Assembly (NCBI GenBank): GCA_963755635.1
Contig: CAVWKS010000026.1
Coordinates: forward strand, 46,786-110,785
Reading direction: 5' to 3'
Source of the DNA: an uncultured Actinomycetes bacterium
GTDB lineage: Bacteria; Actinomycetota; Thermoleophilia; Gaiellales; Gaiellaceae
Length of the DNA: 64,000 nucleotides
The notes under the pieces are model-generated. The model was not told the DNA's origin, did not search any database, and saw nothing but the letters and a program-made list of their open reading frames with translations. How positions within the stretch are numbered: position 1 is the first letter of the stretch; every line of letters begins with the position of its first letter. Of the stretch, positions 7,988 to 56,820 are shown one piece after another. Made by a program: the position numbers and the translations under genes.

Positions 7988-8017
7988 GGCGGTTGTGCTC
8001 GAGTCCCGCACGCCGCC
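7988..8017. terminator. imperfect GC-rich hairpin between convergent genes
   Basis: GGCGG(tt)GTGC - 9-nt loop - GCAC(g)CCGCC, located between the ATPase stop (7972) and the YihY stop (8023). Confidence 0.3.
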
Positions 8018-8022
8018 TAGGT

Positions 8023-10923: not shown

Positions 10924-10980
10924 GCCCTATCAGCGCCACGGAGACTCACCCCGTGGAAGCTACAACGCTCAGCGCCGGGT

Positions 10981-41597: not shown

Positions 41598-42749
41598 GTG
41601 GATCTCCGCGATTCCCCAGACGAGGCGGCGTTCCGCACCCAGGTCAGGGAGTGGCTCGAAGCGAACCTGTCCGAAGAGCTGCGCGGCGGCCGCTCGGGCG
41701 AGCGGCGCTTCGAAGGGATCGGCCGGGAGTGGAGCCGCAAGCTCCACGAGGCCGGCTACGCGGGGCTGACCTGGCCGAAGGAGTACGGCGGCGGCGGCGC
41801 CCCCTACAGCTACCAGGCGATCCTCCTCGAGGAGAGCGCGCTGGCCGAGGCGCCGCAGCACATCGGCGTGATCGGCCTCGGCATGGCGGGGCCGACGATC
41901 ATCGCCCACGGCACCGAGGAGCAGAAGCGCCGGTACCCGCCGAAGATCCTGTCCGCGGAAGAGATCTGGTGCCAGGGCTTCTCCGAGCCCGGCGCCGGCT
42001 CCGATCTCGCGTCCGTCCGGACCCGCGCCGAACAGCGGGACGGCGTCTTCGTCGTCAACGGGCAGAAGGTCTGGTCGTCCTTCGCCCACCTCGCCGACTG
42101 GTGCATCCTGCTCGCGCGCGGAGACCCGGAGTCCGAGCTCCACGCCGGCCTCACGTACCTGATCGTCGACATGCACGCGCCCGGCGTCGAGGTCCGTCCG
42201 CTGCGGCAGCTCACGGGCGAGTCGGAGTTCAACGAGATCTTCTTCACCGACGTCGAGGTGCCAGCGGAGAACCTCATCGGCACTGTCGGCGAGGGCTGGA
42301 CGGTCGCAATGACGACGCTGCTCCACGAGCGCGGCACGCTCGGCTTCGCGCTGACCGGCGTGCTCGAGGTGGCGGTGAGCAAGCTGGTCGCGCTCACCCG
42401 CGCCCGGGGCGTCGACGACCCGCTGCTGCTCGACCGGGTCGCGCGTGAGTGGATCGAGCTGCAGGCGCTCAAGCTCACCAACAACCGCGCACTGGCGCAG
42501 CTGATGCGGACGGGCATCCCCGGTCCCGAAGGCTCAGTGGCGAAGCTCCACTGGTCGGAGGCGAACCAGCGCCTGACCAAACTCGCCCTCGAGATCCTCG
42601 GCGAGGAGGCGCAGGTGCGCTCGGCGGACGGCAGCGACTGGCAGTACCAGCAGCTGCGCAGCCGCGGCAACACGATCGAGGCCGGCACCTCGGAGATCCT
42701 CCGCAACATCGTCGCCGAGCGCGTCCTCGGCCTGCCGCGGGGCCGCTGA
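41598..42749 (+). CDS. acyl-CoA dehydrogenase (large partner of an adjacent FadE pair)
   Basis: ORF 41598..42749. ACAD motifs are WCQGFSEPGAGSDLAS and NGQKVWSS, with a C-terminal GTSEILRNIVAERVLGLP. Confidence 0.9.
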   Translation: MDLRDSPDEAAFRTQVREWLEANLSEELRGGRSGERRFEGIGREWSRKLHEAGYAGLTWPKEYGGGGAPYSYQAILLEESALAEAPQHIGVIGLGMAGPTIIAHGTEEQKRRYPPKILSAEEIWCQGFSEPGAGSDLASVRTRAEQRDGVFVVNGQKVWSSFAHLADWCILLARGDPESELHAGLTYLIVDMHAPGVEVRPLRQLTGESEFNEIFFTDVEVPAENLIGTVGEGWTVAMTTLLHERGTLGFALTGVLEVAVSKLVALTRARGVDDPLLLDRVAREWIELQALKLTNNRALAQLMRTGIPGPEGSVAKLHWSEANQRLTKLALEILGEEAQVRSADGSDWQYQQLRSRGNTIEAGTSEILRNIVAERVLGLPRGR

Positions 42750-43720
42750 TGGACTTCTCCTTCACCGATGTGCAGCAGGAGCTTCGGGCGCAGGCGCGCT
42801 CCTATCTCGCCGAGCGCTGCCCGCCCGAGCGGGTCGCCGAGCTCGCCGACTCGGCGGAAGGCTGGGATCCGGGCTCGTGGCGCGAGCTCGCCGAGCTGGG
42901 CTGGCTCGGCGTCTCGGTGCCGGAGGAGCTCGGTGGCGCAGGACTCGGCTTCGTCGAGGAGGCCGTCCTGCTCGAGGAGCTCGGGCGCGCCCTCTATCCG
43001 GGGCCGTACTTCTCGACCGTCGCCCTCGCTCTGCCGGCGCTCGGCCCCGAGGAGCTCACCCAGGTCGCCGCGGGCGAGGCGCGCTGGTCGGTCTCGCTGG
43101 AGGGAGCGCTCGTCCCGGACCTCGGCATCGTCGACCGCGTCGTCGTCGTCGAGGACGGCGAGGCGCGCGCGGTGCCCGCGCGGGGTGAGGTGCTCGAGAC
43201 GATGGACTCGACGCGCAGGCTGGGGCGCCTGGAGCCGGAGGACGGCACGCCGCTCGCGGGCGACGTTTCGACGCTGCGGCCCCGCGCCTTCGCGGCGCTC
43301 GCCGTCGAGGCGGTCGGGATCGCCGAGCGGGCGCTCGAGCTGGGCGTCGAGCACGCGAAGACGCGCGAGCAGTTCGGGCGTCCCATCGGGGTCTACCAGG
43401 CTGTCTCCCACAGGCTCGCCGACACCTACGCGGAGACGCAGCTGGCGAGATCGCTCGCTTACTGGGCGGTGTGGTGCGTCGCCGAGCGAGACCCCCAGGC
43501 GCCGGTCGCAGCCGCTGCCGCGAAGTCATACGCGGCCGAGGCCGCCGTGGCCGCCTGCGAGCGCTCGATCCAGGTGCTCGGCGGCACGGGCTTCACCTGG
43601 GAGCACCCGCTGCACCGCTACTACAAGCGGGCGGAGTGGATCGAGTCGTTCGGCGGCTTCCCGGCAGCGCTCCGCGCCGAAGTCGCCGAGGCGCTCCTCG
43701 GCGCCCCTGCACCGGTGTGA
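42749..43720 (+). CDS. acyl-CoA dehydrogenase-family protein (shorter partner of the FadE pair)
   Basis: ATG 42749 overlaps the upstream TGA. The 323-aa product has the ACAD C-terminal region QVLGGTGFTWEHPLHRYYKRA. Confidence 0.85.
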   Translation: MDFSFTDVQQELRAQARSYLAERCPPERVAELADSAEGWDPGSWRELAELGWLGVSVPEELGGAGLGFVEEAVLLEELGRALYPGPYFSTVALALPALGPEELTQVAAGEARWSVSLEGALVPDLGIVDRVVVVEDGEARAVPARGEVLETMDSTRRLGRLEPEDGTPLAGDVSTLRPRAFAALAVEAVGIAERALELGVEHAKTREQFGRPIGVYQAVSHRLADTYAETQLARSLAYWAVWCVAERDPQAPVAAAAAKSYAAEAAVAACERSIQVLGGTGFTWEHPLHRYYKRAEWIESFGGFPAALRAEVAEALLGAPAPV

Positions 43721-44559
43721 CCCCGGGCGAGCGCGCGGTCCTGATCACCGGCGCCTCCTCCGGGATCGGCAAGGCGTGCGCCTTGCGGCTCGCCCGGGGA
43801 GGGTGGCGCGTGCTCGCCGGCGTGCGCAGGCGAGAAGACGGGGAGCGGTTGCTGGAGGAGGCGGGAGAGGGCCTCGAGCCGATCCTGCTCGACGTGACCG
43901 AGGCTCGCTCGATCGCGGCGGCGGCGGAGCGGCTCGGCGAGGGCGCGCTCCAGGGCCTCGTCAACAACGCGGGGATCGCGCTCGGGTTGCCCCTCGAGCA
44001 CCTTCCGCTCGACGAGCTGCGCCGCCAGCTCGAGGTGAATCTCGTGGGCCAGGTCGCCGTCACGCAGGCGCTGCTGCCGCATCTCCGCCGCGGGCCGGGA
44101 CGCATCGTCAACGTCGGCTCGATCGCCGGGCGCAGCGCGCTGCCGTTCCTCGGCGCCTACGCCGCGTCGAAGCACGCGCTCGAGGCGGTCACCGACTCGC
44201 TGCGCGTCGAGCTGCGGCCCTTCGGGATCGAGGTCGCGATCGTGGAGCCCGGGACGATCGCGACGGAGATCTGGCAAACCGCGGCCGAGACGTCGCAGCG
44301 GGTCGCCGCGGGACTGGCCCCGGAGGCGCTTGCCCTCTACGCCGAGCGGGCGGCGGCCTTCCGCAAGGCGGCGGCGGCCGCCGCCGGGCGGGCAGAGCCG
44401 GCGGATGAGGTGGCGAGGATCGTCGAGCACGCGCTCACGGCGCGGCGGCCGAAGACGCGCTACCGGGTCGGGCGCGACGCCGCGCGGCGGGCTTGGGTCG
44501 AGCGCCTTCCGGATCGGCTGCGCGACCGGGTCTACGAGCGCGTGCTGCTGCGGGGATGA
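43717..44559 (+). CDS. SDR-family oxidoreductase
   Basis: GTG 43717 overlaps the upstream stop. It has TGASSGIG, NNAG and the YAASK catalytic motif. Confidence 0.85.
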   Translation: MTPGERAVLITGASSGIGKACALRLARGGWRVLAGVRRREDGERLLEEAGEGLEPILLDVTEARSIAAAAERLGEGALQGLVNNAGIALGLPLEHLPLDELRRQLEVNLVGQVAVTQALLPHLRRGPGRIVNVGSIAGRSALPFLGAYAASKHALEAVTDSLRVELRPFGIEVAIVEPGTIATEIWQTAAETSQRVAAGLAPEALALYAERAAAFRKAAAAAAGRAEPADEVARIVEHALTARRPKTRYRVGRDAARRAWVERLPDRLRDRVYERVLLRG

Positions 44560-45349: not shown

Positions 45350-45754
45350 ATGGGGCACACGTTCGGGATGCTGGAGGAGCTCGGCGAGGGCTACGGCTTC
45401 CGCAAGGTCAGGCGCGCGCTCGGGGTGGACGCGTTCGGGGTCAACGCGATCGTGATGCCGCCGGGCTACGACGGCTTCGAGCACTACCACGACCTGCAGG
45501 ACGAGCTGTACTTCGTCCACGCCGGGACGGCGCGCGTCGAGGTCGAAGGCGAGGTCCGCGAGCTCGGGCCCGGCGGGCTCTGCCACGTCGAGGCGACGAC
45601 GCCCCGGAAGATCTCGAACGGCGGCGACGACGACCTCGTCCTGCTCGTCGTCGGCGGCAAGGGCGGCTACGTGGAGCGCGACGGCCACCTCGTGCACGCG
45701 GACGACCTCGAGCGCCGCCGCGCGTTCTCTGCCGAGGAAGGAGGCGGGTCGTGA
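45350..45754 (+). CDS. cupin-domain protein
   Basis: This is an in-frame ATG of ORF 45125..45754. The cupin motifs are FEHYHDLQDELYFVHAG and GGLCHVEA. Confidence 0.7.
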   Translation: MGHTFGMLEELGEGYGFRKVRRALGVDAFGVNAIVMPPGYDGFEHYHDLQDELYFVHAGTARVEVEGEVRELGPGGLCHVEATTPRKISNGGDDDLVLLVVGGKGGYVERDGHLVHADDLERRRAFSAEEGGGS

Positions 45755-47355
45755 AGGGCCAGATGATGGACTACCAGCTGACGCTGCCGACGATCCTGCG
45801 CCGGGCGGAGACGTACTTCGGCGAGAAAGAGATCGTCACTCGGCTGCCGGATCGGAGCTTCCACCGCTACACCTACGCCGACTTCACGAGGCGGGCGCGG
45901 CAGCTCGCGGTTGCGTTGACGGAGCTCGGCCTCGAGCGTGGCGACCGAGTCGCCACGCTGTGCTGGAACCACTACCAGCACCTCGAGGCGTACTTCGGGG
46001 TCCCGTGCGGCGGCTTCGTGCTGCACACGCTCAACCTGCGGCTGCACGCGAACGAGCTCGCGTTCATCGCCGAGCACGGCGGCGATCGCGCGGTGATCGT
46101 CGACGCCGCGCTCGTGCCGCTGCTCGAGCAGTTCCGGGAGCGCACCGCGATCGAGCATGTCTTCGTCGTCGAGGACGGCTACGAGGAGCTGCTCGCGGGC
46201 GCGGACCCGGACACCTGGCAAGACCCTGGGCTCGACGAAGAAGAAGCCGCCGCAATGTGCTACACGTCAGGCACGACCGGGCTCCCGAAGGGCGTCGTCT
46301 ACTCGCACCGGTCGACCCTCCTGCACACGCTCGGCGTCGCCGCCGGCAACCCGCTCGGCCTCGGCATCTCCGAGGAGGACACGATCCTCCCCGTCGTGCC
46401 GATGTTCCACGCGAACGCTTGGGGCTATCCGTACGTCGCGACGATGCTGGGCGCGAATCACGTCTACCCCGGGCCGCACCTCGACGCAGAGAGCCTCCTC
46501 GACGACTTCGTGCTGGAGCAGGTGACGTGGACGGCCGGGGTGCCGACGATCTGGCTCGGGATCCTCCAGCTGCTCGACGAGAACCCGGGGCGCTGGGACC
46601 TGACGCACCTGAAGGGCATGCTCGTCGGCGGCTCCGCTGCCCCGCGCGCGATGATCGCCGGCTTCAAGCAGCGGCACGGCCTCGTCGTCTGCCACGGCTG
46701 GGGGATGACGGAGACCTCGCCTGTCGCGACCTTCGCCTCGCTGCCGGGAGCGCTCGGCGAGGCTGACGAGGAGACCCAGCTCGACTACGGGGCGATGCAG
46801 GGGATGCCGCTGCCGCTGGTAGAGCTGCGCGCCCGGGACGCCGACGGCAACGAGGTGCCCTGGGACGGAAGCACGATGGGCGAGCTCGAGGTGCGCGGGC
46901 CGTGGGTCTCGGCGTCCTACTACGAGGCGCCCGAGCAGGCCGATCGCTGGACGGAGGACGGGTGGTTCCGGACCGGCGACATCGTCTCGATCGACCCCAG
47001 CGGCTTCATCCAGATCCAGGACCGGACGAAGGACGTGATCAAGTCGGGCGGTGAGTGGATCTCCTCGGTCGCGCTCGAGAACCAGCTGATGGCGCACGAT
47101 GCTGTCGCCGAGGCGGCCGTGATCGCGATCCCGGATCCGAAGTGGCAGGAGCGGCCGCTGGCGGTGGTGGTGCTCAGGGCCGGCCGGTCCGCGACCGCTG
47201 AGGAGCTGCGCGACTTCCTGGCGCCGCACTTCGCGAAGTGGTGGCTGCCCGACCGCTTCGAGTTCGTCGACGAGATCCCGAAGACAGCAGTCGGGAAGTT
47301 CCGCAAGACCGCCCTGCGCGAGCAGTTCGTCCAGGCGCCCGTCCCGGCCTCCTGA
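45751..47355 (+). CDS. acyl-CoA synthetase (AMP-forming, FadD-like medium/long-chain)
   Basis: GTG 45751 forms a GTGA overlap (alternative ATG 45763). It has the AMP-binding motif YTSGTTGLPKGVVYSHRS and, downstream, GWFRTGD and KSGGEWIS. Confidence 0.9.
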   Translation: MKGQMMDYQLTLPTILRRAETYFGEKEIVTRLPDRSFHRYTYADFTRRARQLAVALTELGLERGDRVATLCWNHYQHLEAYFGVPCGGFVLHTLNLRLHANELAFIAEHGGDRAVIVDAALVPLLEQFRERTAIEHVFVVEDGYEELLAGADPDTWQDPGLDEEEAAAMCYTSGTTGLPKGVVYSHRSTLLHTLGVAAGNPLGLGISEEDTILPVVPMFHANAWGYPYVATMLGANHVYPGPHLDAESLLDDFVLEQVTWTAGVPTIWLGILQLLDENPGRWDLTHLKGMLVGGSAAPRAMIAGFKQRHGLVVCHGWGMTETSPVATFASLPGALGEADEETQLDYGAMQGMPLPLVELRARDADGNEVPWDGSTMGELEVRGPWVSASYYEAPEQADRWTEDGWFRTGDIVSIDPSGFIQIQDRTKDVIKSGGEWISSVALENQLMAHDAVAEAAVIAIPDPKWQERPLAVVVLRAGRSATAEELRDFLAPHFAKWWLPDRFEFVDEIPKTAVGKFRKTALREQFVQAPVPAS

Positions 47356-47356
47356 C

Positions 47357-48064
47357 GTGGAGGCGGGGAGGGCGCGCTTCCCCGGGACGGCGCTCGTCAC
47401 CGGCGGCGCCTCCGGGATCGGCGCCGCGATCGTCGAGCTGCTCGAGCGCGAGGGCTGCGCGACCACCGTCCTGGACGCGCGGGACGGCTTCGACGTGGGC
47501 GACCCGGCGGCCTGGGAGACGGTCGGTTCCGTCGAGCTCGCGTGCCTGAACGCCGGTGTCACGACGGGCGTCGCGGACCTCAAGGACGTCCCGGACGAGG
47601 CGTACCTCCGCATCCGCGGCGCGAACCTGGACGGCGTCGTCTTCGGCGTGCGGCGCCTGGCCCGCGTGATGGAGCCCGGCGGCGCCATCGTTGTCACCGC
47701 CTCCCTGGCAGGGCTCGTGCCCACGGAGCGCGATCCGCTCTACACGCTGACGAAGCACGGCGTTGTCGGCTTCGTTCGTGCCGTCGCGCCCGAGCTCGAG
47801 GCTCGCGGGCTCCGGATCTGCGCGGTCGCCCCGGGGTTTGCAGACACGCCGCTGCTCGACGAGGAGACGCGCGCCGCGATGGAGGCGGCCCGCTTCCCGC
47901 TGCTCCGCCCCGCGGAGGTGGCGGAGGCGGTGCTGCGGGCGGCGCGCGAGGCACGCACGGGCGAAGTGTGGGTCGTGCAGCCGGGCCGCGAGCCGGTCCC
48001 GTTCAGGTTCCCGAACGTGCCGGGCGCCCGCAGGCCGGACGGCGCGCCGGCACCTCCTCCGTAG
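47357..48064 (+). CDS. SDR-family oxidoreductase
   Basis: ORF 47357..48064 begins 1 nt after the ligase stop. It has TGGASGIG and the YTLTK catalytic motif. Confidence 0.85.
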   Translation: MEAGRARFPGTALVTGGASGIGAAIVELLEREGCATTVLDARDGFDVGDPAAWETVGSVELACLNAGVTTGVADLKDVPDEAYLRIRGANLDGVVFGVRRLARVMEPGGAIVVTASLAGLVPTERDPLYTLTKHGVVGFVRAVAPELEARGLRICAVAPGFADTPLLDEETRAAMEAARFPLLRPAEVAEAVLRAAREARTGEVWVVQPGREPVPFRFPNVPGARRPDGAPAPPP

Positions 48065-48074
48065 CCGTCGCGAT

Positions 48075-49283
48075 CTAGGTGAACTCCCAGCGGCCGCCGT
48101 CCGCGAAGGCAGCGAGGATCCGGCGGCTGACGACCATGCGGTGCACCTCGTCCGGCCCGTCGTAGATGCGGCCGCCGCGCGCCATCAGCGCCATCGCGGC
48201 CAGCGGCGTCTCGTGTGTCAGCCCGAGGGCGCCGTGCACCTGGATCGCCCTGTCGAGCACGTCGTTCAGGACGCGGGCCGCGTAGAACTTGACCAGCGAG
48301 ATCTCGACGCGGGCCTCCTCGCCCCGGTCGATCTTGTGCGCGGCGTCGAGCGTCAGCAGCCGGCAGGCCTGGATCTCGGCCGCCGAGTCGGCAATCCAGT
48401 TCTGGACGGTCTGCTTCTCCGCCAGCGGCCCGCCGAAGGCCTCACGCTCGAGCGCACGGCTGCAGAGGAGCTCGAAGCCGCGCTGCATCTGGCCGAGCCA
48501 GCGCATGACGTGGTGGATGCGCCCGGGCCCGAGCCGCTTCTGCGCGATCCGGAAGCCGGCGCCGCGCTCGCCGAGCAGGTTCTCGAGCGGGACGCGCACG
48601 TCCGAGTAGCGGACCTCGCAGTGGGTCGACCAGCCGCGGCCGCGGTGGCCGAGGACCGGCACCGCAGTGATCTCCACCCCCGGCGCGTCGGCCGGGACGA
48701 CGATCTGGCTCATCCGGCGGTGCGGCTCCTGCTCCGGCTCCGTCACGGCCATGACGATTCCGAACGCCGCGCCCTCGGCGCCTGTCGAGAACCACTTGTG
48801 TCCGTCGACCACCCACTCGTCGCCGTCCTGAACGGCAGTCGTCCGCAGCCCCGTGGGATCCGCTCCCGACACCTCCGGCTCCGTCATCGAGAAGAACGAG
48901 CGCACCTCGCCCGCGACGAGCGGCCGCAGCCAGCGTGCTTGCTGCTCCTCGCTGCCGAACAGGTGCAGGATCTCGGCGTTGCCCGCGTCGGGCGCCTGGC
49001 AGCCGAAGACGAGCTGGGCCCAGACGCTGCGGCCGATCACCTCGTTCAGGTAGGCGTAGGCCAGGAAGCCACGGCCGCTGCCACCCGCCTCGGGGCCGAT
49101 GTGCGGCGCCCAGAGCCCCTCGGCCTTCGCCTTCCCGCGCAGCTCGGCGACGAGCGCATCGGCGTCGTCGTCCTCGCGTCCGAGCGCGGGCTCGTTCGGG
49201 TAGACGTGCTCGTCCATGAACGCCCGGTAGCGCTCCCGCAGCTCGCGGACCTCCTCCGCGGGCTCGAGATCGGCGATTGCCAC
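48075..49283 (-). CDS. acyl-CoA dehydrogenase of the ACAD10/ACAD11-like subfamily
   Basis: ORF 48075..49283. CQAPDAGNAEILHLFGSEEQ, FSMTEPEVSGADPT and especially KRLGPGRIHHVMRWLG match the pattern I recall for ACAD10/11-type enzymes. Confidence 0.88.
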   Translation of the reverse strand: MAIADLEPAEEVRELRERYRAFMDEHVYPNEPALGREDDDADALVAELRGKAKAEGLWAPHIGPEAGGSGRGFLAYAYLNEVIGRSVWAQLVFGCQAPDAGNAEILHLFGSEEQQARWLRPLVAGEVRSFFSMTEPEVSGADPTGLRTTAVQDGDEWVVDGHKWFSTGAEGAAFGIVMAVTEPEQEPHRRMSQIVVPADAPGVEITAVPVLGHRGRGWSTHCEVRYSDVRVPLENLLGERGAGFRIAQKRLGPGRIHHVMRWLGQMQRGFELLCSRALEREAFGGPLAEKQTVQNWIADSAAEIQACRLLTLDAAHKIDRGEEARVEISLVKFYAARVLNDVLDRAIQVHGALGLTHETPLAAMALMARGGRIYDGPDEVHRMVVSRRILAAFADGGRWEFT

Positions 49284-49303
49284 GGCGTTAGCATTGCACG
49301 TTC

Positions 49304-50314
49304 GTGCGCCTCGGCCTGTACCTCGGCTACGCCCCGCCCGGTACGAATCCGACGGAGCTGATCGCTCTCGCGGAGGAGGCCGAGCGGCTCGGCTTCGACT
49401 CGGCGTGGGCGGCGGAGGCCTGGGGGACGGATGCGGTCACCGTGCTCTCCTTCCTCGCCGCGCGCACGACCACGCTGAAGGTCGGCTCCGCGATCATGCA
49501 GATCCCGGCGCGGACCCCGGCCAACACGGCGATGACGGCGATGACGCTCGACCTGCTGAGCGACGGGCGCTTCCTGCTCGGCCTCGGCGTCTCGGGGCCG
49601 CAGGTCGTCGAGGGCTGGCACGGGCAGCCGTGGGGCAGGCCGCTCGAGAAGACGCGTGAGTACGTCGAGATCGTGCGCGCAGCCCTGCGACGGGAGCCGC
49701 TCGAACATCACGGGCGGCACTACGACGTGCCCTACACCGGCCCGGGGGCGACCGGGCTCGGCAAGCCGCTGAAGCTGCTCGGCCGCCCGCTGCGCGCGGA
49801 GGTTCCGATCTACCTCGCCGCGCTCGGGCCCAGGAGCGTCGAGCTGGCGGCAGAGATCGCAGACGGCTGGCTGCCGCTCTACCTCTCGCCCGAGCGCTTC
49901 GACGAGCTCTTCCGACCTCACCTCGAGCACGCGCGCGAGGGGTTCGAGATCGCGGCGGCCGTGCACGTCGTTCCCGGCGACGACCTCGAGGCCTGCCGGG
50001 CCGTGGTGAAGCAGGTGCTTGCCCTCTACATCGGCGGCATGGGTGCTCGGGGGAGCAACTTCTACAACGACGCCGTCCGCCGGTACGGGTACGAGCGCGA
50101 GGCGGACGAGGTGCAGGAGCTCTACCTCGGCGGCCGGCAACGGGACGCTGCGGCCGCGGTCCCCGACGCGCTCGTCGACGAGGTCGCGCTCGTCGGCTCG
50201 CGTGAGCGGATCGCCGACCGGCTGGCGGCGTGGCGCGAGTGCGGCGTGACGACGCTCCTCTGCCAGACCCGCGACGTCGAGGCGCTGCGGCTGCTCGCGG
50301 AGCTGGCGGCCTAG
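49304..50314 (+). CDS. LLM-class (luciferase-like) F420-dependent oxidoreductase
   Basis: ORF 49304..50314. It has MRLGLYLGY...FDSAWAAEAWGTDAV...LGLGVSGPQVVEGWHG. Confidence 0.85.
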   Translation: MRLGLYLGYAPPGTNPTELIALAEEAERLGFDSAWAAEAWGTDAVTVLSFLAARTTTLKVGSAIMQIPARTPANTAMTAMTLDLLSDGRFLLGLGVSGPQVVEGWHGQPWGRPLEKTREYVEIVRAALRREPLEHHGRHYDVPYTGPGATGLGKPLKLLGRPLRAEVPIYLAALGPRSVELAAEIADGWLPLYLSPERFDELFRPHLEHAREGFEIAAAVHVVPGDDLEACRAVVKQVLALYIGGMGARGSNFYNDAVRRYGYEREADEVQELYLGGRQRDAAAAVPDALVDEVALVGSRERIADRLAAWRECGVTTLLCQTRDVEALRLLAELAA

Positions 50315-50322
50315 GCGGAATC

Positions 50323-51090
50323 GTGAACGTCCGCGAGCTCTTCGACCTCGAAGGCAAATCGGCGATCGTGACCGGCGGGGGCACCGGCATCGGCCGGCAG
50401 ATGGCGCAGGCGCTCGCCGAGGCCGGCGCGAGCCTCGTCCTCTGTGCGCGCAACGCGGAGCGCTGCGAGCAGGCGGCCGCGGAGCTGTCCGCGCTCGGGG
50501 TGCGGGCCCTCGGCCTGCGCTGCGACGTCCGCAAGCCGGACGACGTCCAGGCGGTTGTCGACCGCACGCGTCAGGAGCTCGGGCGCATCGACATCCTCGT
50601 CAACAACGCCGGCACGGTCTGGGGCGCCTCGCCTGAGGAGATGCCGCTCGAGGGCTGGCAGAAGGTGCTCGACGTCAACCTGACCGGCGTCTTCCTCTGC
50701 TCGCAGGCGGCGGGCCGGGTGATGATCGAGCAACAGGCCGGCAAGATCGTCAACGTGGCCTCCGTAGCCGGGCTCGAAGGCGCGCCCGCCGAGGTGATGA
50801 ACTCGCTCCCCTACCACGCGACGAAGGGCGGCGTCATCGCGCTCACCCGCGACCTCGCGTGGAAGTGGGCCCGGCACGGGATCAACGTCAACGCGCTTGC
50901 TCCCGGCTGGTTTCCGAGCGACATGTCGCGCTACGTCCTCGACCGGCAGCCGCAGCTCATCGAACGGATCCCGCTCGGGCGGTTCGGCGGCCAGGAGGAC
51001 CTCAAGGGCGCCGTGGTCTTCCTCGCCTCCCCGGCGTCCGACTACGTGACGGGTCACACGCTCGTCGTCGACGGCGGCCAGTCCGCGTGA
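50323..51090 (+). CDS. SDR-family oxidoreductase (FabG/gluconate-5-dehydrogenase-like)
   Basis: GTG 50323 lies in the frame of ORF 50230..51090. It has TGGGTGIG, NNAG and YHATK. Confidence 0.85.
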   Translation: MNVRELFDLEGKSAIVTGGGTGIGRQMAQALAEAGASLVLCARNAERCEQAAAELSALGVRALGLRCDVRKPDDVQAVVDRTRQELGRIDILVNNAGTVWGASPEEMPLEGWQKVLDVNLTGVFLCSQAAGRVMIEQQAGKIVNVASVAGLEGAPAEVMNSLPYHATKGGVIALTRDLAWKWARHGINVNALAPGWFPSDMSRYVLDRQPQLIERIPLGRFGGQEDLKGAVVFLASPASDYVTGHTLVVDGGQSA

Positions 51091-52076
51091 GCGGCGAATC
51101 CGCAGGCCCGCCCTGGACGGAGGAGCTTCGCGACGCGCTCGCCGAGCTGCTCGACGGCCCGGTCGAGATCGACAGCGCGCAGATGCTGCCGGGCGGCGCC
51201 TCGAAGGAGGCCTGGGCGGTCGACGTGCGCGGGCCGCAGGGGCCGCTTGAGCTGCTCGTACGACGGGCCGCCGGCGGCGTCATCCACGCCGACACGCTCC
51301 CGCTGGAGCACGAGCTGCGCGTGCTCGAGGCCGCCTACGCCGCGGGCGTGCGGGTGCCGCGCCCGGTCGGCTACCTGGGCGAGCTCGGCGGCCGCGAGGC
51401 GTTCGCGACGGCGCGCGTCGCGGGCGAGACGATCGGCAGGCGGATCGTCCGGAACCCGGAGCTCGCGGCCGCGCGCGAGACGCTGCCGCTGCAGCTCGCC
51501 GACGAGCTGGCGAAGGTGCACGCGATCGATCCCGCAGCCGTCCCGTTCCTCGGCGACCGGGACGTGCTGGAGCAATTCGAGCACGAGCTCGACTCCGTCG
51601 GCGAGCCGCACCCGGCGATCGAGCTCGGGCTGCTCTGGCTGCGGGACCACCGGCCCGAGCCGTTGCGGCCGGTCGTCAGCCACGGCGACTTCCGGCTCGG
51701 CAACGTCGTCGTCTCCGAGCGCGGGCTCGAGTACTTACTGGACTGGGAGTTCGCGCATCTCGGCGACCCGCGCGAGGACCTCGCCTGGCCGCTCGTCCGC
51801 GCCTGGCGCTTCGGCGCCGACGAGCTTCGGCTCGGCGGGATCGCCGAGGTCGAGCCGTATCTGGAGCGCTACTGCGAGCAAAGCGGGCGCGCGATCGCCG
51901 TCGCGGAGCTCTTCTGGTGGGAAGTCCTCGGCAACGTCAAGTGGGCGACCGGGGCGCTGACGCAGTCGCGACGCCACCTCTCGGGGCAGGAGCGAAGCGT
52001 CGAGCTCGCCGTTCTCGGCCGCCTCGCCGCGGAGATGGAGTACGAGCTGCTCGATCTGCTCGAGCGCGTGGCATGA
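51087..52076 (+). CDS. APH-fold phosphotransferase (ACAD10/11 kinase-domain-like, LvaA-like)
   Basis: GTG 51087 forms a GTGA overlap. It has the Brenner motif HGDFRLGN and the DWEFAHLGDP metal-binding motif. Confidence 0.85.
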   Translation: MSGESAGPPWTEELRDALAELLDGPVEIDSAQMLPGGASKEAWAVDVRGPQGPLELLVRRAAGGVIHADTLPLEHELRVLEAAYAAGVRVPRPVGYLGELGGREAFATARVAGETIGRRIVRNPELAAARETLPLQLADELAKVHAIDPAAVPFLGDRDVLEQFEHELDSVGEPHPAIELGLLWLRDHRPEPLRPVVSHGDFRLGNVVVSERGLEYLLDWEFAHLGDPREDLAWPLVRAWRFGADELRLGGIAEVEPYLERYCEQSGRAIAVAELFWWEVLGNVKWATGALTQSRRHLSGQERSVELAVLGRLAAEMEYELLDLLERVA

Positions 52077-52381
52077 GCGACCGCCCGACGGCCGCGGAGC
52101 TCGTCGAGGCGACGCGCGAGTTCCTGGAGGCGGAGGTCCTGCCGGCCCTCACCGACCCGCGACTCCGCTTCCGTGCGCTCGTCGCGGTCAACGCGCTCGG
52201 GATCGCGCAGCGTGAGCTGGAGCACGAGGGCGCCGCCGAGCTCCCGGACGACGACCTTGCGGAGCTGGCGAGGAGCATTCGCCGCGGCGAGGTGCCGGCC
52301 GGCACGCTCGCACGTCTGAAGGAGCACGTGGCGGCGAAACTGCGAATCGCGAGCCCCCGCTACCTCGACCGCTACCAATGA
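52073..52381 (+). CDS. small helical protein (102 aa), probably the DUF6285-type partner of the phosphotransferase
   Basis: ATG 52073 overlaps the kinase stop, and its own stop overlaps the next ATG (ATGA). The family assignment is from memory and is unverified. Confidence 0.6.
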   Translation: MSDRPTAAELVEATREFLEAEVLPALTDPRLRFRALVAVNALGIAQRELEHEGAAELPDDDLAELARSIRRGEVPAGTLARLKEHVAAKLRIASPRYLDRYQ

Positions 52382-53034
52382 GCAGGCGCCGGCTGTACCT
52401 CCTCCGCCACGCGGACGTCGCGTACTTCGACGAGCGCGGCCGGCCCTTGCCGCCGGACGATGCAGCCCTGACGGCCAAGGGCCGTGAGCAGGCGCTCGCC
52501 ACCGCGGAGACGCTGCGCGACGTCCGCTTCGACCGGGTGCTGACCAGCGGCCTCAGGCGCACGGTCGAGACCGCCCGCCTGGTCGCGCCGGACGCGAAGC
52601 TCGAGGCGTGGCCCGACCTGCGCGAGCTCGCTCCCGGACGCCTCACGGCCATCCCGGCGGACGAGCTGGAGGAAGCATTCGTCGGCGCCTTCCGCGGGGC
52701 CGTGCCCGAGAGTCGCAGGTTTCTCGGCGGCGAGACGATCGGCGCGCTGCTCGACCGCGTCCTACCCGCCCTCGAGCGCCTGCTCGCGGACCGGGCCTGG
52801 GACGTCGTGCTCGCGGTCCTGCACGGCGGCGTCAACCGGGCGATCCTGTCCTTCGCCCTCACCGGGCAGCGCTCGTTCCTCGGCGGGTTCGAGCAGGCGC
52901 CCGCCTGCGTCAACGTCCTCGACGTGGGAGACGACTGGATCGTGCGGGCGGTCAACGTGACGCCCTACGACCTCGTCCATCGCCACGATCGTACGACGAC
53001 GATGGAACGGCTCTTCGCGCAGTACCGGCCGTAG
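52378..53034 (+). CDS. histidine phosphatase-family protein (phosphoglycerate-mutase-like)
   Basis: ORF 52378..53034. It has an LRHA motif at the N-terminus, GLRRTVETA, and a downstream LHGGV histidine. Confidence 0.85.
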   Translation: MSRRRLYLLRHADVAYFDERGRPLPPDDAALTAKGREQALATAETLRDVRFDRVLTSGLRRTVETARLVAPDAKLEAWPDLRELAPGRLTAIPADELEEAFVGAFRGAVPESRRFLGGETIGALLDRVLPALERLLADRAWDVVLAVLHGGVNRAILSFALTGQRSFLGGFEQAPACVNVLDVGDDWIVRAVNVTPYDLVHRHDRTTTMERLFAQYRP

Positions 53035-53043
53035 GATTGAGGC

Positions 53044-53976
53044 GTGCTCGACGGGAAAGTCGCCATCGTCACGGGCGCCGGGCGCGGAATCGGGCGTGAG
53101 CATGCCCACGCGCTCGCCCGCGCGGGCGCCAGGGTGGTCGTCAACGACCTCGGCGGCGCGCTGAGCGGCGAGGGGGCGGACCAGCGCCCGGCGGACGAGG
53201 TGGCCGAGGAGATCAGGAGCGAGGGCGGCGAGGCTGTCGCGAGCTACGAGAACGTGGCGAGCTTCGAGGAGGCCGAGCGGATGGTGCGCGGCGCGGTCGA
53301 GCGCTTCGGCCGGCTGGACATCCTCGTCAACAACGCCGGCATCCTCCGCGACCGGATGCTCGTGAACATGACCGAGGACGAGTGGGACGCGGTGATCGCG
53401 GTCCACCTGAAAGGCCACTTCGCGCCGACCAGGCACGCAGCGGCGTACTGGCGCGAGCGGTCGAAGGCCGGCGAGGAGGTGCGTGGCCGGGTGATCAACA
53501 CTTCCAGCCCCTCGGGTGTCTTCGGCAACGTCGGCCAGGCGAACTACGGCGCCGCCAAGGGCGCGATCGCCTCCTTCACGCTGATCGCCGCGCAGGAGCT
53601 CGCCCGCTACGGGGTCACCGTCAACTGCCTCGCCCCGAGCGCGCGCACGCGCATGACCGAGGAGACCTTCGGCGACCTGCCCGCGCCCGACGAGGGCTTC
53701 GACCCGCTCGACCCGGCGAACATCGCACCGATCGTCGTCGCCCTCTGCGCGGACGAGGCACAGGACGTGACGGGGCAGTGCCTCTTCGTCTACGGCGGGG
53801 CGGTGAACGTGCTGCGCCCTTGGGATGAGGGCGAGGCGATCGCGAAGGATGGGCGCTGGGAGGCGGACGAGTTCCTGGGGCAGCTCCTCGCCCGCTTCCC
53901 CGAGGGCGCGGCCCCGGCAGGGATGCTCGCGCTGATGAAGCGGGCCGGCGGCCGCTCGCTCCGGGCCCAGGAATGA
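53044..53976 (+). CDS. SDR resembling the (3R)-hydroxyacyl-CoA dehydrogenase domain of MFE-2/Hsd4A
   Basis: ORF 53044..53976. TGAGRGIG, VVVNDLGG, NNAGILRDR and GQANYGAAK closely follow the HSD17B4 N-terminal pattern. Confidence 0.85.
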   Translation: MLDGKVAIVTGAGRGIGREHAHALARAGARVVVNDLGGALSGEGADQRPADEVAEEIRSEGGEAVASYENVASFEEAERMVRGAVERFGRLDILVNNAGILRDRMLVNMTEDEWDAVIAVHLKGHFAPTRHAAAYWRERSKAGEEVRGRVINTSSPSGVFGNVGQANYGAAKGAIASFTLIAAQELARYGVTVNCLAPSARTRMTEETFGDLPAPDEGFDPLDPANIAPIVVALCADEAQDVTGQCLFVYGGAVNVLRPWDEGEAIAKDGRWEADEFLGQLLARFPEGAAPAGMLALMKRAGGRSLRAQE

Positions 53977-54425
53977 CGGCGCAGCTGACGATCGCGGAGC
54001 TCGAGCGGGCCGGCGAGCTCGATCTCGGCGCCAGCTCGTGGGTGGAGGTCGACCAGCGGCGGATCGACCTCTTCGCCGACGCGACCGGCGATCACCAGTG
54101 GATCCACGTCGACCCCGAGAGGGCGGCGAACGGGCCGTTCGGGACGACGGTCGCGCACGGCTACCTCTCGCTCTCTCTCATTCCCGCCCTGCTCTCCGAG
54201 CTGCTCGTCATGACCGACGCGCGCCTGGGGCTCAACTACGGCACCGAGCGCATCCGCTTCACCTCGCCAGTGCCCTCGGGCTCGGAGGTGCGCCTGCGCG
54301 CGAGGCTCGTCTCCACGGAGCGCCGCGACGCGGGCGTCGTCTTCCGGCTCGCGGTCGAGATCGAGGTGCGCGGCCAGGAGAAGCCCGCCCTCGTGGGCGA
54401 GGTCGTCTACCTCGCCTACGAGTAG
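53973..54425 (+). CDS. MaoC-family (R)-specific enoyl-CoA hydratase
   Basis: ORF 53973..54425 has a 4-nt overlap with the SDR. The hot-dog hydratase motif is FADATGDHQWIHVDPERA...FGTTVAHG. Confidence 0.85.
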   Translation: MTAQLTIAELERAGELDLGASSWVEVDQRRIDLFADATGDHQWIHVDPERAANGPFGTTVAHGYLSLSLIPALLSELLVMTDARLGLNYGTERIRFTSPVPSGSEVRLRARLVSTERRDAGVVFRLAVEIEVRGQEKPALVGEVVYLAYE

Positions 54426-55594
54426 CGGTCGCCGTCGAGCCGCTCGACGAGCATCGCCATTCCCTGGCCACCGCCGACGCACATCGTCTCGAGCCCGATC
54501 GTCCCGTCGACCGCCTCGAGACCGTTCAGGAGCGTGCACATGATCCGCGCGCCCGTCATCCCGTATGGATGGCCGAGCGCGATCGCGCCGCCGTGCGGGT
54601 TCAGCTGCTCGCCGAAGGGGTCGATCCCGAGCTCCCGGCAGACCGGCAGCACCTGGGCGGCGAACGCCTCGTTCAGCTCGACCACGTCGACGTCGTCGAG
54701 AGTCATCCCGGCCCGCGGCAGCACGGTGCGCACGGCCTCGATCGGCCCCAAGCCCATGATCTCCGGCTCCAGGCCGGAGACGGCGGAGGCGAGGATGCGG
54801 GCGCGCGGCCCGAGCCCGAGCGCCCGCGCGCGCTCCTCGCTCACCACGACGACCGCGGCGGCGCCGTCGTTCAGCGGGCAGGAGTTGCCGGCGGTCACCT
54901 TCCCTCCGGGGACGAAGGCCGGTTCGAGCTCTGCGAGCCGCTCGACCGTCGACTCCGGCCGGGGCCCGTCGTCGCGCGCCACGACCTCGCCGTTCTCCTT
55001 CGGGTACGGCGTCACCTCGCGCTCGAAGAAGCCCGAGGCCTGCGCTGCGACGGCCCGCTCCTGCGAGCGCTGCGCGTAGAGGTCCATCTCCTCGCGAGAG
55101 ACGTCAAAGCGCTCGGCCACGTTCTCCGCGGTCACGCCCATCGGGATGTAGACGTTCGCGATCGAGCCCTCCTGTCCCGTGAGCCTCGGGTGGAGCTCGT
55201 CCGCGTCCCTCGGGTAGCCGTCGACCTGCGAGATCGACTCCACCCCGGCGGCCACGAACACATCTCCCTCGCCGGCCCTGATCGCGTGGAAGGCCATGCG
55301 GATCGTCTGCAGGCTCGAGGCGCAGAAGCGGTTCACGGTCGTGCCGGGAATGCGCTTCGGCAGCCCGGCCAGCAGCGCCGCCCGGCGCCCCAGGTTCATC
55401 CCCTGCTTCCCCTGCGGGAAGCCACAGCCGACCATCACGTCGACGATCTCGCCCGGGTCGAGCTCCGGTACCTGCTGCAGCGCGCTGCGGATCGCGAAGG
55501 CGACGAGATCGTCCGGGCGCACGTCGACGAGCGATCCCTTGCGCGCCCGGCCGATCGGCGTCCGCGCCGCAGCGACGATCAGCGCCTCAGGCAT
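54416..55594 (-). CDS. acetyl-CoA C-acyltransferase (thiolase)
   Basis: ORF 54416..55594. It has the NRFCASS active-site Cys, a C-terminal GGGQGMA motif and NEAFAAQ. Confidence 0.92.
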   Translation of the reverse strand: MPEALIVAAARTPIGRARKGSLVDVRPDDLVAFAIRSALQQVPELDPGEIVDVMVGCGFPQGKQGMNLGRRAALLAGLPKRIPGTTVNRFCASSLQTIRMAFHAIRAGEGDVFVAAGVESISQVDGYPRDADELHPRLTGQEGSIANVYIPMGVTAENVAERFDVSREEMDLYAQRSQERAVAAQASGFFEREVTPYPKENGEVVARDDGPRPESTVERLAELEPAFVPGGKVTAGNSCPLNDGAAAVVVVSEERARALGLGPRARILASAVSGLEPEIMGLGPIEAVRTVLPRAGMTLDDVDVVELNEAFAAQVLPVCRELGIDPFGEQLNPHGGAIALGHPYGMTGARIMCTLLNGLEAVDGTIGLETMCVGGGQGMAMLVERLDGDRYS

Positions 55595-56748
55595 CAGGCG
55601 AACGCGCTCTCGCCCGTGAGTGCCCGGCCGATGATCAGCTTCTGGATCTGGCTCGTGCCCTCGTACAAGGTGGTCACGCGCGCGTCGCGCAGGTACTTCC
55701 CCACCGGGTACTCGTCGACGTATCCGTAGCCGCCGTGCACCTGCACGGCCGCGTTCGCCGCGCGCACCGAGACCTCGCTCGCGTAGTACTTCGCGAGTGA
55801 GGACTCGAGCGTGTGCCGCTCACCGCGGTCGGCCAGCGCCGCTGCGCGCCACGTGAGCAGGCGGGCGGCGTCCGTCTCGACGGCGATGTCGGCGATCAGC
55901 TCCTGAATCAGCTGGAAGCTCGCGAGCGGCTTCCCGAACTGCGTTCGCTCCCGCGCGTACTCGAGGCAAGCGTCGAGGCAGCCCTGGGCGATCCCGACGC
56001 AGCCCGCCGCGAGGGAGATCCGGCCGTTGTCGAGAGCCGACATGGCGACCTTGAAGCCCTCGCCCTCGCGGCCGAGGCGGCTCCCCTCGGGCACGCGGAC
56101 CTCGTCCAGGAAGAGCTCCGCGGTGTCCTGCGCGCGCAGGCCGAGCTTGCCCTTGATGGGCTGCGCGCGGAAGCCCTCGCTCTCCGTCGGGACGAGGAAG
56201 CACGTGATGCCGCCCACCCCCTCGCTGCCCGTGCGGGCGAAGACGAGGGCGACGCTCGCCCAGCTGCCGAGCGTGATGAAGATCTTCGAGCCGCTCAGCA
56301 GCCACTCCTCGCCGTCACGCCGGGCGCGCGTCGCGAGGCTCGCGGGGTCGGAGCCCGAGCCCGGCTCGGTCAGGGCATAGCAGCCGAGGCCCGCGCCCGA
56401 GCAGAGCCTCGGCAGCCATTCGCGCTTCTGCTCCTCGCTCCCCCACCTGGCGATCGTCTTCCCGACCAGCCCGACGTTGACCGAGACGATCCCGCGCACC
56501 GACGAGTCGGCGCGGCCGAGCTCCTCCATCAGGAGGCAGTACGAGACGGTGTCCAGGCCGAGGCCGCCGTGCTCCTCGGGCAGGCCGGCCCCGAGAAAGC
56601 CGACCTCGGCGAGCTTGGCGACGATCGCCCGGTCCATCGTCTCCGCCCGGTCCCATTCGCGCGCGCCGGGGACGACCTCCCGCTCGGCAAACTCGCGTGC
56701 CGAGCGCCGGATCAACTCCTGCTCCGGGCTGAGCGCGAAGTCCGGCAT
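55594..56748 (-). CDS. acyl-CoA dehydrogenase (short/medium-chain type)
   Basis: This is the in-frame ATG 56748 of ORF 55594..56802. It has ALTEPGSGSDPAS and YEGTSQIQKLIIGRAL. Confidence 0.9.
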   Translation of the reverse strand: MPDFALSPEQELIRRSAREFAEREVVPGAREWDRAETMDRAIVAKLAEVGFLGAGLPEEHGGLGLDTVSYCLLMEELGRADSSVRGIVSVNVGLVGKTIARWGSEEQKREWLPRLCSGAGLGCYALTEPGSGSDPASLATRARRDGEEWLLSGSKIFITLGSWASVALVFARTGSEGVGGITCFLVPTESEGFRAQPIKGKLGLRAQDTAELFLDEVRVPEGSRLGREGEGFKVAMSALDNGRISLAAGCVGIAQGCLDACLEYARERTQFGKPLASFQLIQELIADIAVETDAARLLTWRAAALADRGERHTLESSLAKYYASEVSVRAANAAVQVHGGYGYVDEYPVGKYLRDARVTTLYEGTSQIQKLIIGRALTGESAFA

Positions 56749-56779
56749 GCGTGCGAGCGTAGTGGAATGCGAAGGCGGT

Positions 56780-56800
56780 GGGGCCGCGCGGTGCGGCCCC
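56780..56800 (-). terminator. GC-rich hairpin after the substrate-binding-protein gene
   Basis: GGGGCCGC - gcggt - GCGGCCCC, an 8-bp stem 21 nt downstream of the stop at 56821 on the minus strand. Confidence 0.45.
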
Positions 56801-56820
56801 AACCACCTTCGGAACGCCGG

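Follow-up and report, generated by a model that had tools for sequence, protein, structure and literature searches.

We have described here a gene cluster from an uncultured member of the Gaiellaceae (Actinomycetota; Thermoleophilia; Gaiellales) that is predicted to channel carboxylic acids with a 4-oxo or 4-hydroxy group into beta-oxidation along the phosphorylation-elimination route of the levulinate (lva) operon of Pseudomonas putida and of the mammalian acyl-coenzyme A (CoA) dehydrogenases ACAD10 and ACAD11. The cluster lies in a 64,000-nucleotide stretch of DNA (the window; GenBank assembly GCA_963755635.1, contig CAVWKS010000026.1, positions 46,786 to 110,785), and all coordinates below are positions within that stretch. 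We put the probability of this reading at about 0.8. It is carried by the family membership of the encoded proteins, by the catalytic and phosphate-binding residues that they retain, by the packing of the genes into an operon, and by the co-conservation of these genes in related and distant genomes.

In the proposed pathway a ligase would convert the acid to its acyl-CoA, and a short-chain dehydrogenase (SDR2, 50323-51090) would reduce a 4-oxoacyl-CoA to the 4-hydroxyacyl-CoA, a step unneeded for 4-hydroxy acids or opened gamma-lactones. A two-subunit kinase (51087-52076, with the DUF6285 protein at 52073-52381) would phosphorylate the 4-hydroxyl, and a flavoenzyme of the ACAD11 type (48075-49283) would eliminate the phosphate in an FAD-dependent, redox-neutral reaction to give the 2-enoyl-CoA. 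One turn of beta-oxidation could then be finished by a MaoC hydratase (hydration), a further short-chain dehydrogenase, SDR3 (oxidation), and a thiolase (thiolysis). We infer each of these enzymatic steps from published assays of LvaAB/LvaC and ACAD10/11, and likewise the chain length and the natural substrate. Comparison with the lvaABCDE(FG) operon of P. putida KT2440 was made through the copy on the P. aeruginosa plasmid p12939-PER (locus L085), which was located by tblastn of plasmids and is complete, with a PrpR-type regulator, a phosphotransferase, lvaB, an acyl-CoA dehydrogenase (ACAD), a short-chain dehydrogenase (SDR), a ligase, a DUF485 protein and an acetate symporter.

An ACAD11-type flavoenzyme

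The ACAD has all three of the Pfam domains Acyl-CoA_dh_N, _M and _1 above cut-off, and mouse ACAD11 fills the first two places among its matches in the PDB (300 and 298 bits), ahead of human ACAD11 at 279 bits and a protein of Mycobacterium abscessus at 275 bits; no ordinary ACAD in the PDB exceeds 185 bits, 115 below mouse ACAD11. Rashan et al. (PMC12440821) showed that ACAD10, ACAD11 and LvaC are distinguished by a catalytic aspartate, D753, in place of glutamate, and that the 4-phosphate is bound by R626, H634 and R637, which all lie on a single helix; mutation of these residues abolishes phosphate elimination, as does mutation of D753 in ACAD11. The window enzyme has YDGPDEVH aligned with LADGPDEVH of ACAD11, such that the catalytic Asp (mouse D753) replaces the canonical Glu, and its segment RLGPGRIHHVMR aligns with RLGPGRIHHCMR of ACAD11, with counterparts of R626, R631, H634 and R637 (the 'HCMR' region) all present. 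The ordinary ACADs of the window have EGT at the catalytic position and are quite different at the phosphate-binding region, and one of them, the canonical ACAD at 55594-56802, has the catalytic Glu, lacks the R..R..H..R motif, and groups with ordinary ACADs in a neighbour-joining tree. The same tree places the window ACAD inside the ACAD11/LvaC clade, on the side of ACAD11 and the Burkholderia, Deinococcus and Rhodococcus enzymes and not on the Pseudomonas LvaC and Thermus side; it is 37% identical to LvaC of p12939-PER and 46% identical to the Burkholderia enzyme. A preliminary description of this DNA, made from the sequence without database searches, had assigned the protein to the ACAD10/ACAD11 type from the motif KRLGPGRIHHVMR, and both the motif and the assignment hold. 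The protein is predicted to be a 4-phosphoacyl-CoA phosphate-eliminating enzyme that forms 2-enoyl-CoA.

Relatives of this enzyme in other genomes show some departures. Chloroflexota ACADs carry VDGPDEVH, and the catalytic Asp is thus present in them. The ACAD11-type genes of L029 (~7127-8206) and L044 (~7264-8205) have frameshifts in the C-terminal third, which are either assembly errors or signs of pseudogenes. A plasmid of Rhodococcus sp. USK13 (L082 5974-7209) has an ACAD11-type gene (RLGPGRIFHCMR) among Rieske, CoA-transferase and lipid-transfer genes, and no kinase was found within 6 kb of it, which suggests that some members of the ACAD11 clade have another role or a distant partner.

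An LvaA-type kinase and its putative small subunit

The catalytic motifs H199-G-D201-F-R-L-G-N206 and D219-W-E221 of the kinase are invariant in 12 homologues, and the preliminary description had cited them correctly as HGDFRLGN and DWEFAHLGDP. The protein is 62–63% identical to the kinase on plasmid pTT27 of Thermus thermophilus HB8, and is closer to LvaA of p12939-PER (36%, 179 bits) than to the ACAD11-type kinases of Burkholderia and Deinococcus (26–29%, 61–74 bits) or to the kinase domain of ACAD11 itself (29 bits). Pseudomonas LvaA is also distant from ACAD11 (60 bits), and Paquay et al. likewise reported 29% identity between the two. Because of these scores we recognise two kinase sub-branches, with the window enzyme in that of LvaA, although the grouping comes from six sequences without outgroup APHs and its branch depth is limited to that extent. 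The proposal that this APH-fold phosphotransferase is the LvaA counterpart is thus upheld, and it is predicted to be the catalytic subunit of a 4-hydroxyacyl-CoA kinase. The locus therefore combines an LvaA-type kinase with an ACAD11-type ACAD, two partners from different sub-branches of the system.

The 102-residue protein encoded next to the kinase belongs to Pfam DUF6285 (PF19802; 51 bits against a cut-off of 28.1, E=2.4e-13), as does the RefSeq-annotated lvaB product of p12939-PER ('4-hydroxypentanoyl-CoA kinase subunit LvaB'; 85 bits, E=4.8e-24). Direct BLASTP similarity between the two is weak (35%, 26–37 bits), and since no NCBIfam model matched even the RefSeq-named LvaB, membership of the LvaB family rests on the Pfam match. 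This shared family agrees with the earlier suggestion of a small LvaB, and we regard the protein as the counterpart of LvaB and a putative small kinase subunit. In P. putida, LvaA and LvaB interact in pull-down experiments and both are required for phosphorylation of 4-hydroxyvaleryl-CoA, as reported in PMC6692424 from the work of Rand (2017).

Gene organisation

The window has a G+C content of about 71%, at which many false open reading frames arise, and genes were picked by third-position G+C and then confirmed with Pfam and NCBIfam. Every gene listed in the preliminary description was recovered where it had been placed, with Pfam matches far above the curated cut-offs (Table 1).

Table 1. 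Genes of the predicted 4-oxo/4-hydroxy acid cluster and the features on which their assignments are based.
Gene product	Position	Strand	Basis
Acyl-CoA synthetase	45751-47355	+	Pfam AMP-binding 251 bits, and AMP-binding_C
SDR1, divergent short-chain dehydrogenase	47357-48064	+	Pfam adh_short 93 bits
ACAD10/ACAD11/LvaC-type flavoenzyme	48075-49283	-	Pfam three-domain ACAD; best PDB matches ACAD11
F420-dependent luciferase-like oxidoreductase (LLM, Rv3520c subfamily)	49304-50314	+	TIGR03559 438 bits, cut-off 335
SDR2, LvaD-like	50323-51090 (open reading frame opens at 50230)	+	Match to LvaD, 38%/125 bits
LvaA-type APH-fold kinase	51087-52076	+	Pfam APH 100.7 bits
DUF6285 protein, 102 aa	52073-52381	+	Pfam DUF6285 51 bits
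Histidine phosphatase, branch 1	52378-53034	+	Pfam His_Phos_1 124 bits
SDR3, predicted 3-hydroxyacyl-CoA dehydrogenase	53044-53976	+	NCBIfam PRK07791 407 bits, cut-off 373
MaoC-type (R)-specific enoyl-CoA hydratase	53973-54425	+	Pfam MaoC_dehydratas 86.6 bits
Thiolase	54416-55594	-	Pfam Thiolase_N/C; TIGR01930 449 bits
Canonical acyl-CoA dehydrogenase	55594-56802	-	Pfam ACAD domains; YEGTSQIQ motif

The plus-strand run from 49304 to 54425 (LLM, SDR2, kinase, DUF6285, histidine phosphatase, SDR3 and MaoC) has gaps of at most 9 nt or overlaps of 4 nt, and because of this tight packing we consider it to be a seven-gene operon. The chain of overlaps that had been described through the kinase, the 102-residue protein and the phosphatase is directly visible in the sequence, with GTGA at 51087-51090 (SDR2/kinase) and ATGA at both 52073-52076 (kinase/DUF6285) and 52378-52381 (DUF6285/phosphatase). 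The LLM and another SDR had also been described as embedded in the unit, and are indeed its first and second genes. The end of the unit had been set at 53034, and here the genes within it stand but the boundary does not, as SDR3 starts 9 nt past the phosphatase stop, overlaps MaoC by 4 nt, and with it continues the operon to 54425. The start of SDR2 is most likely the GTG at 50323, 8 nt past the LLM stop, rather than 50230, since the NCBIfam alignment begins at residue 33 of the longer frame and the sequence agrees with this.

The ACAD11-type gene is monocistronic and divergent from the operon, with its GTG start codon 20 bp from that of the LLM (gap 49284-49303) and its end 10 nt from the end of an upstream plus-strand group (hydrolase, cupin, ligase and SDR1). 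With only 20 bp between the two start codons, either the promoters overlap coding sequence or the transcripts are leaderless, and the arrangement suggests shared regulation of the ACAD11-type gene and the F420-dependent LLM. The thiolase and canonical ACAD genes (54416-56802) are convergent to the operon, and a Liv-type ABC transporter is encoded downstream of the cluster. Scans of the window for tRNAs and Rfam families gave no matches.

Co-conservation of the gene set

The window proteins were mapped onto 80 loci, each from the genome of a different GTDB species and each encoding a relative of the kinase (59–92% identity). The closest public relative, L001 from an uncultured Actinomycetota metagenome-assembled genome (MAG), has an identical gene order and proteins 84–95% identical to those of the window, and the next-closest relatives are Gaiellaceae and Gaiellales MAGs. 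In at least 69 of the 77 loci with enough flank the gene directly after that of the kinase encodes DUF6285, and of the remaining eight loci three have a copy that is frameshifted or scores below the threshold. The histidine phosphatase lies after DUF6285 and within 3.5 kb of the kinase in 50 of 65 such loci, being present in the Gaiellales and absent from Chloroflexota, Longimicrobiaceae and Polyangiaceae. An ACAD11-type gene is found within 5 kb upstream of the kinase in 33 of 55.

The same gene set is seen well beyond this lineage. Thermus thermophilus HB8 has ligase, SDR, ACAD, kinase, DUF6285 and phosphatase genes overlapping on one strand of pTT27; Azospirillum has SDR, ACAD, kinase, DUF6285 and phosphatase; and a Longimicrobiaceae MAG has ACAD, kinase and DUF6285, these last three being on one strand in Thermus, Azospirillum, Longimicrobiaceae and Pseudomonas alike. 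In Nonomuraea an ACAD is followed by a kinase, and an ACAD11-type ACAD is paired with a phosphotransferase in Bosea, Salipiger, Streptomyces and the archaeon Natrinema. The arrangement is not due to chance, since several phyla have this gene set, in differing orders. The R-x4-R-x2-H-x2-R motif is present in every kinase-adjacent ACAD compared, with Sulfitobacter as the sole exception: on a plasmid of Sulfitobacter pontiacus (L086 6959-9688) the kinase and DUF6285 genes are followed by that of a 443-residue ACAD that has the canonical catalytic Glu and lacks the phosphate-binding motif. The expectation that these genes would be kept together in other genomes is thus borne out in both near and distant relatives; the link between kinase and partners is strong but not universal within the lineage, and is clearer across phyla.

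The histidine phosphatase

In the histidine phosphatase the catalytic residues of fructose-2,6-bisphosphatase have their counterparts in the segments LLRHAD, GLRRT, LRELAPG and VLHGG, which are conserved in orthologues. The catalytic set (RH(A/G) nucleophile motif, Arg, Glu proton donor and second His) is complete, and by sequence the protein should be catalytically competent. Its nearest characterised relatives are fructose-2,6-bisphosphatase, the phosphoserine phosphatase PspA and CobC, but these score only 34–39 bits and thus no substrate can be read from homology.

The preliminary description had placed this protein where ACAD10 has a HAD domain. It is indeed present, as a separate gene, but it is not peculiar to this locus and recurs in other lva-type clusters. 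Phosphatases of the same lineage follow DUF6285 in Thermus (46–48% identical), Azospirillum (41%) and the complete lva operon on a plasmid of Stutzerimonas stutzeri S116 (39%); in Acinetobacter one lies about 360 nt downstream of the kinase, judging by match coordinates, and a Ralstonia syzygii phosphatase, 53% identical, adjoins an ACAD11-type kinase. In five or more phyla or classes a phosphatase stands beside the kinase, which may be of either subtype. A second His_Phos_1 lineage is found beside ACAD11-type kinases in Burkholderia cenocepacia (L081 2640-3314) and Deinococcus grandis (L083 10569-11267); it keeps the RHG motif, but the residue aligned with the second catalytic His is Ser (SSGG/TSGG), and these proteins may be non-hydrolytic or regulatory. 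We considered and rejected a single origin for all of the cluster phosphatases, as the Burkholderia/Deinococcus type has no significant similarity to the window type (26% over 62 residues for Burkholderia).

A 218-residue histidine phosphatase encoded beside lvaA was noted by Habe et al. (2019; PMC6692424) in a levulinate-induced cluster of P. citronellolis, and was suggested to remove phosphate from 4-phosphovaleryl-CoA, although it was left uncharacterised; among the papers searched, none published later deals with it. The same authors reported no lvaB homologue in this cluster (strain LA18T, PCLA_07f0390 to 07f0393), but one may have been missed, because in the Stutzerimonas operon, which has the same layout, a DUF6285 gene separates lvaA from the phosphatase gene, and the numbering of the P. 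citronellolis locus tags would allow for one.

Operons of the P. putida type lack a phosphatase, as do four further sampled ACAD11-type clusters, and the protein is therefore best described as an accessory, conserved but dispensable. The role that we favour, if tentatively, is hydrolysis of 4-phosphoacyl-CoA or of the free 4-phospho acid, as a relief valve or in proofreading. The reasons are that the phosphatase is coupled to the kinase, not the ACAD, that loci whose neighbourhood no longer includes the ACAD still have the phosphatase, and that 4-phosphoacyl-CoA ties up CoA. Such a valve would keep CoA from being trapped if elimination lags, and the released 4-hydroxyacyl-CoA could lactonise, freeing the CoA. 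However, P. putida-type operons work without a phosphatase, as noted above for these and other clusters, and one that undoes the kinase step would set up a futile cycle. A broader version of the proposal, which we hold with similar reserve, is that LvaAB and a dedicated 4-phosphoacyl-CoA or 4-phospho acid phosphatase form a controlled pair that is ancient, has arisen at least twice, and is functionally convergent with the HAD domain of ACAD10. By ancient we refer to its distribution in Thermus, Gaiellales and the Alpha-, Beta- and Gammaproteobacteria, and by repeated origin to the two unrelated histidine-phosphatase lineages; the parallel with the HAD domain is one of analogy.

A different and rather unlikely role is that of a mechanistic part, in which the protein would act as a phosphomutase or phosphotransferase on the phospho-intermediate, or would regulate the kinase or LvaB by dephosphorylating it. 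Mutases are among the members of the histidine phosphatase superfamily, translation of the gene is coupled to that of both kinase subunits, the gene co-varies with the kinase across phyla, and the Ser in place of the second catalytic His in the Burkholderia/Deinococcus type hints at a non-hydrolytic or binding role. However, LvaAB with LvaC, and ACAD10/11, turn 4-hydroxyacyl-CoA into 2-enoyl-CoA without a phosphatase (PMC12440821, PMC11342911), no activation loop is present in APH-type kinases of this branch (PMC13596139), and the many clusters that lack the phosphatase also speak against a mechanistic part.

Comparison with known systems

The locus shares with the Pseudomonas lva operon an LvaA-type kinase, a DUF6285 small subunit, an LvaD-like SDR (38%), an acyl-CoA synthetase, and an ACAD with the catalytic Asp and the R..R..H..R phosphate-binding helix. 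It differs in that its ACAD is of the ACAD11 sub-branch and is encoded by a single divergent gene, its ligase belongs to another subfamily, and it has in addition the histidine phosphatase, the LLM, SDR3, MaoC and thiolase.

The core is arranged likewise in the uncharacterised cluster of T. thermophilus HB8 (pTT27, TTH_RS10060-10085) and in the lva variants of the S. stutzeri plasmid and P. citronellolis LA18T, in which kinase, DUF6285 and phosphatase form the same overlapping trio as in the window. The Thermus proteins of the trio are 62–63%, 52% and 46–48% identical to those of the window, respectively, and an LvaD-like SDR and a ligase are encoded upstream. These clusters are unlike the window in having an ACAD of the LvaC sub-branch (RL[DA]PARLTHCMR) on the same strand and in lacking the F420-dependent LLM, and that of Thermus has an extra PaaI thioesterase and a truncated ligase gene. 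The latter, an AMP-binding gene of 314 codons (L084 4087-5031), is missing the central part of the AMP-binding domain, and is probably truncated or decayed.

Paquay et al. assayed B. pseudomallei proteins related to LvaA and LvaC, to which we assume the B. cenocepacia locus L081 to be orthologous. This cluster, in the order histidine phosphatase, ACAD11-type kinase, SDR, SDR and ACAD, has in common with the window an ACAD of the same sub-branch (its motif identical save for Val in place of Cys), LvaD-like SDRs, and a His_Phos_1 protein beside the kinase. It differs in having an ACAD11-type kinase, which scores 270 bits with ACAD11 and lacks a DUF6285 partner, and a phosphatase of the other lineage, with the Ser substitution described above.

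With mammalian ACAD10 and ACAD11 the locus shares the ACAD domain (its best PDB match), all of the residues needed for phosphate elimination, and the logic of a kinase followed by an eliminating enzyme. Unlike in the mammalian fusions, the parts are separate genes, as had been described, and the kinase is of the other sub-branch with a separate small subunit. ACAD10 has a HAD domain, not a histidine phosphatase, and a preprint (PMC13596139) assigns ether-lipid phosphatase activity to it; Pfam found no HAD domain in the cluster, which does not have the HAD-kinase-ACAD fusion architecture of ACAD10.

The ligase, the short-chain dehydrogenases and the LLM

An acyl-CoA synthetase is present, as the preliminary description had noted in matching it to LvaE, but orthology to LvaE does not stand. 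The window ligase scores 574 bits with NCBIfam PRK06187 (cut-off 476) and falls in the PRK06187/PRK07008 group, whereas LvaE scores 856 bits with PRK08162, and it is 34% identical to LvaE as against 58% to the truncated ligase of the Thermus cluster. Of the 49 related loci whose flanks are long enough, 40 have it, and on these comparisons it is a functional analogue of LvaE and not its orthologue.

The SDR paired with the ligase (SDR1) had been proposed as LvaD, and this we reject: it matches LvaD with 28–32% identity and 39 bits, compared with 38% and 125 bits for SDR2, the best LvaD match of the three SDRs of the cluster. SDR1 follows the ligase syntenically in Gaiellales loci. SDR2 is 52% identical (222 bits) to the SDR upstream of the ACAD in Thermus and 42% identical to that of the Deinococcus cluster, and an SDR of this type is present in all of the clusters compared except those of Sulfitobacter, Salipiger and Natrinema. 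Such similarity does not fix the substrate, but SDR2 appears to be the LvaD counterpart and is predicted to be a 4-oxoacyl-CoA reductase.

The F420-dependent LLM is found in 39 of 55 related loci and is absent from the Chloroflexota, Thermus and Pseudomonas versions. We considered it as a general component of the system and rejected this, because it is absent outside the Gaiellales and the LLMs near the Natrinema and Streptomyces clusters are only 26–30% identical; it is a lineage-specific accessory. For SDR3, we infer a function as 3-hydroxyacyl-CoA dehydrogenase from its pairing with MaoC. MaoC genes are also present in the Thermus and Deinococcus clusters, and the thiolase is syntenic in most Gaiellales loci.

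Alternative interpretations

Several observations weigh against the assignment of the locus to the 4-oxo/4-hydroxy acid route. The ligase is not an LvaE orthologue, and neither the sigma-54 regulator LvaR nor the DUF485/acetate-symporter pair LvaFG was found in a Pfam scan of the genes from 38.3 to 62.9 kb, so that the locus is not a canonical lva operon. The ACAD is missing near the kinase in 21 of the 55 related loci (about 40%), including a whole Gaiellaceae subclade (L052, L054, L057, L058, L062-L064, L066, L067, L069-L071, L074, which is the complete chromosome OY970171.1, L078 and L080) which lacks both the ACAD11-type gene and SDR2 at this position and keeps the LLM, kinase and DUF6285, with the phosphatase in most loci. 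In five MAGs (L003-L007) neither DUF6285 nor the phosphatase nor an ACAD11-type gene lies less than 10 kb from the kinase, which is 77–81% identical to that of the window; these kinases are encoded at ~10001-10960 and preceded by a cupin and an SDR, and may be stand-alone paralogues or belong to a rearranged cluster. Finally, ACAD10-type kinases phosphorylate 1-O-alkylglycerols according to a 2026 preprint (PMC13596139), and because of this result substrate assignment in the kinase superfamily is not settled.

The last point underlies an alternative in which the substrate of the kinase, and perhaps of the phosphatase, would not be an acyl-CoA but a lipid alcohol, for instance 1-O-alkylglycerol and its phosphate, with the ACAD only loosely connected. 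The preprint reports alkylglycerol kinase activity for ACAD10 and several prokaryotic homologues together with phosphatase activity for the HAD domain of ACAD10, and a kinase/phosphatase pair would suit a scheme of alkylglycerol salvage. However, the window kinase is in the LvaA/LvaB branch and not the ACAD10 branch that was assayed (26–29% identity), it is set among a CoA ligase, thiolase, hydratase and ACADs, its partner ACAD keeps every phosphate-binding residue for 4-phosphoacyl-CoA, and no ether-lipid genes were seen in the cluster, and we regard this interpretation as improbable. That an ordinary beta-oxidation ACAD, an APH kinase for antibiotics or small molecules and an unrelated housekeeping phosphatase lie together by coincidence could be argued from the setting in a large island of fatty-acid catabolism (which has several SDRs and, besides this ACAD, four further ACAD genes or subunits), the opposite strand of the ACAD and its frequent absence beside the kinase. 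This has very little left to recommend it, as both the residue pattern and the synteny across phyla already contradict it, given that the ACAD lacks the canonical catalytic Glu and has ACAD11-specific residues, that the kinase scores only 20–32 bits with NCBIfam antibiotic-kinase models, far below their cut-offs, and that the combination recurs in varied gene orders in Thermus, Azospirillum, Pseudomonas, Longimicrobiaceae, Chloroflexota and Nonomuraea.

Neighbouring genes

Upstream of the cluster, an open reading frame at 42768-44408 (546 aa) was rejected as spurious because it matches no family and its third-position GC is 0.69. Other frames of the segment 42749-44559 hold the real genes, which encode a 323-residue ACAD without a middle domain (~42749-43720) and an SDR (~43726-44559), and this ACAD, which follows a PimC-like ACAD (41598-42749), probably forms a two-subunit ACAD with it. 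The segment 38297-41575 encodes a CurA-like NADPH enone reductase (397 bits, cut-off 440), an FMN-dependent 2-hydroxy-acid dehydrogenase or oxidase, and a Zn-alcohol dehydrogenase like mycothiol-formaldehyde dehydrogenase, and these oxidoreductases might supply or process oxidised lipid substrates. A PcaD-like alpha/beta hydrolase near the cluster scores 69–72 bits with enol-lactonase models, well under their cut-offs. One speculation is that the substrates are lactones or oxidised lipids, which would suit this hydrolase, the cupin, the CurA-like reductase and the Zn-alcohol dehydrogenase.

Significance

By everything that could be tested here the locus would belong to the LvaAB/LvaC and ACAD10/11 system, with its core function well supported by homology, and it holds nothing that would surprise a specialist. 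Its variations are modest, namely an LvaA-type kinase combined with a divergent ACAD11-type ACAD, an F420-dependent LLM heading the operon, and a full downstream beta-oxidation set. What it offers is an extension of the levulinate and 4-hydroxy acid phosphorylation-elimination route to uncultured soil Actinomycetota of the Gaiellales and, through related loci, to Chloroflexota, Gemmatimonadota, Deinococcota and a haloarchaeon, and it shows that kinases of either sub-branch, and ACADs of either sub-branch, have been interchangeable in evolution. The main practical interest lies in the histidine phosphatase, a conserved partner of the kinase that also occurs in the genetically tractable Thermus thermophilus HB8 and Stutzerimonas, and whose role would bear both on the engineering of levulinate and gamma-valerolactone utilisation and on the debate over the phosphatase domain of ACAD10. 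If the kinase and phosphatase do form a controlled pair, a phosphatase that checks the CoA-trapping phospho-intermediate would be a general requirement of the 4-hydroxy acid pathway.

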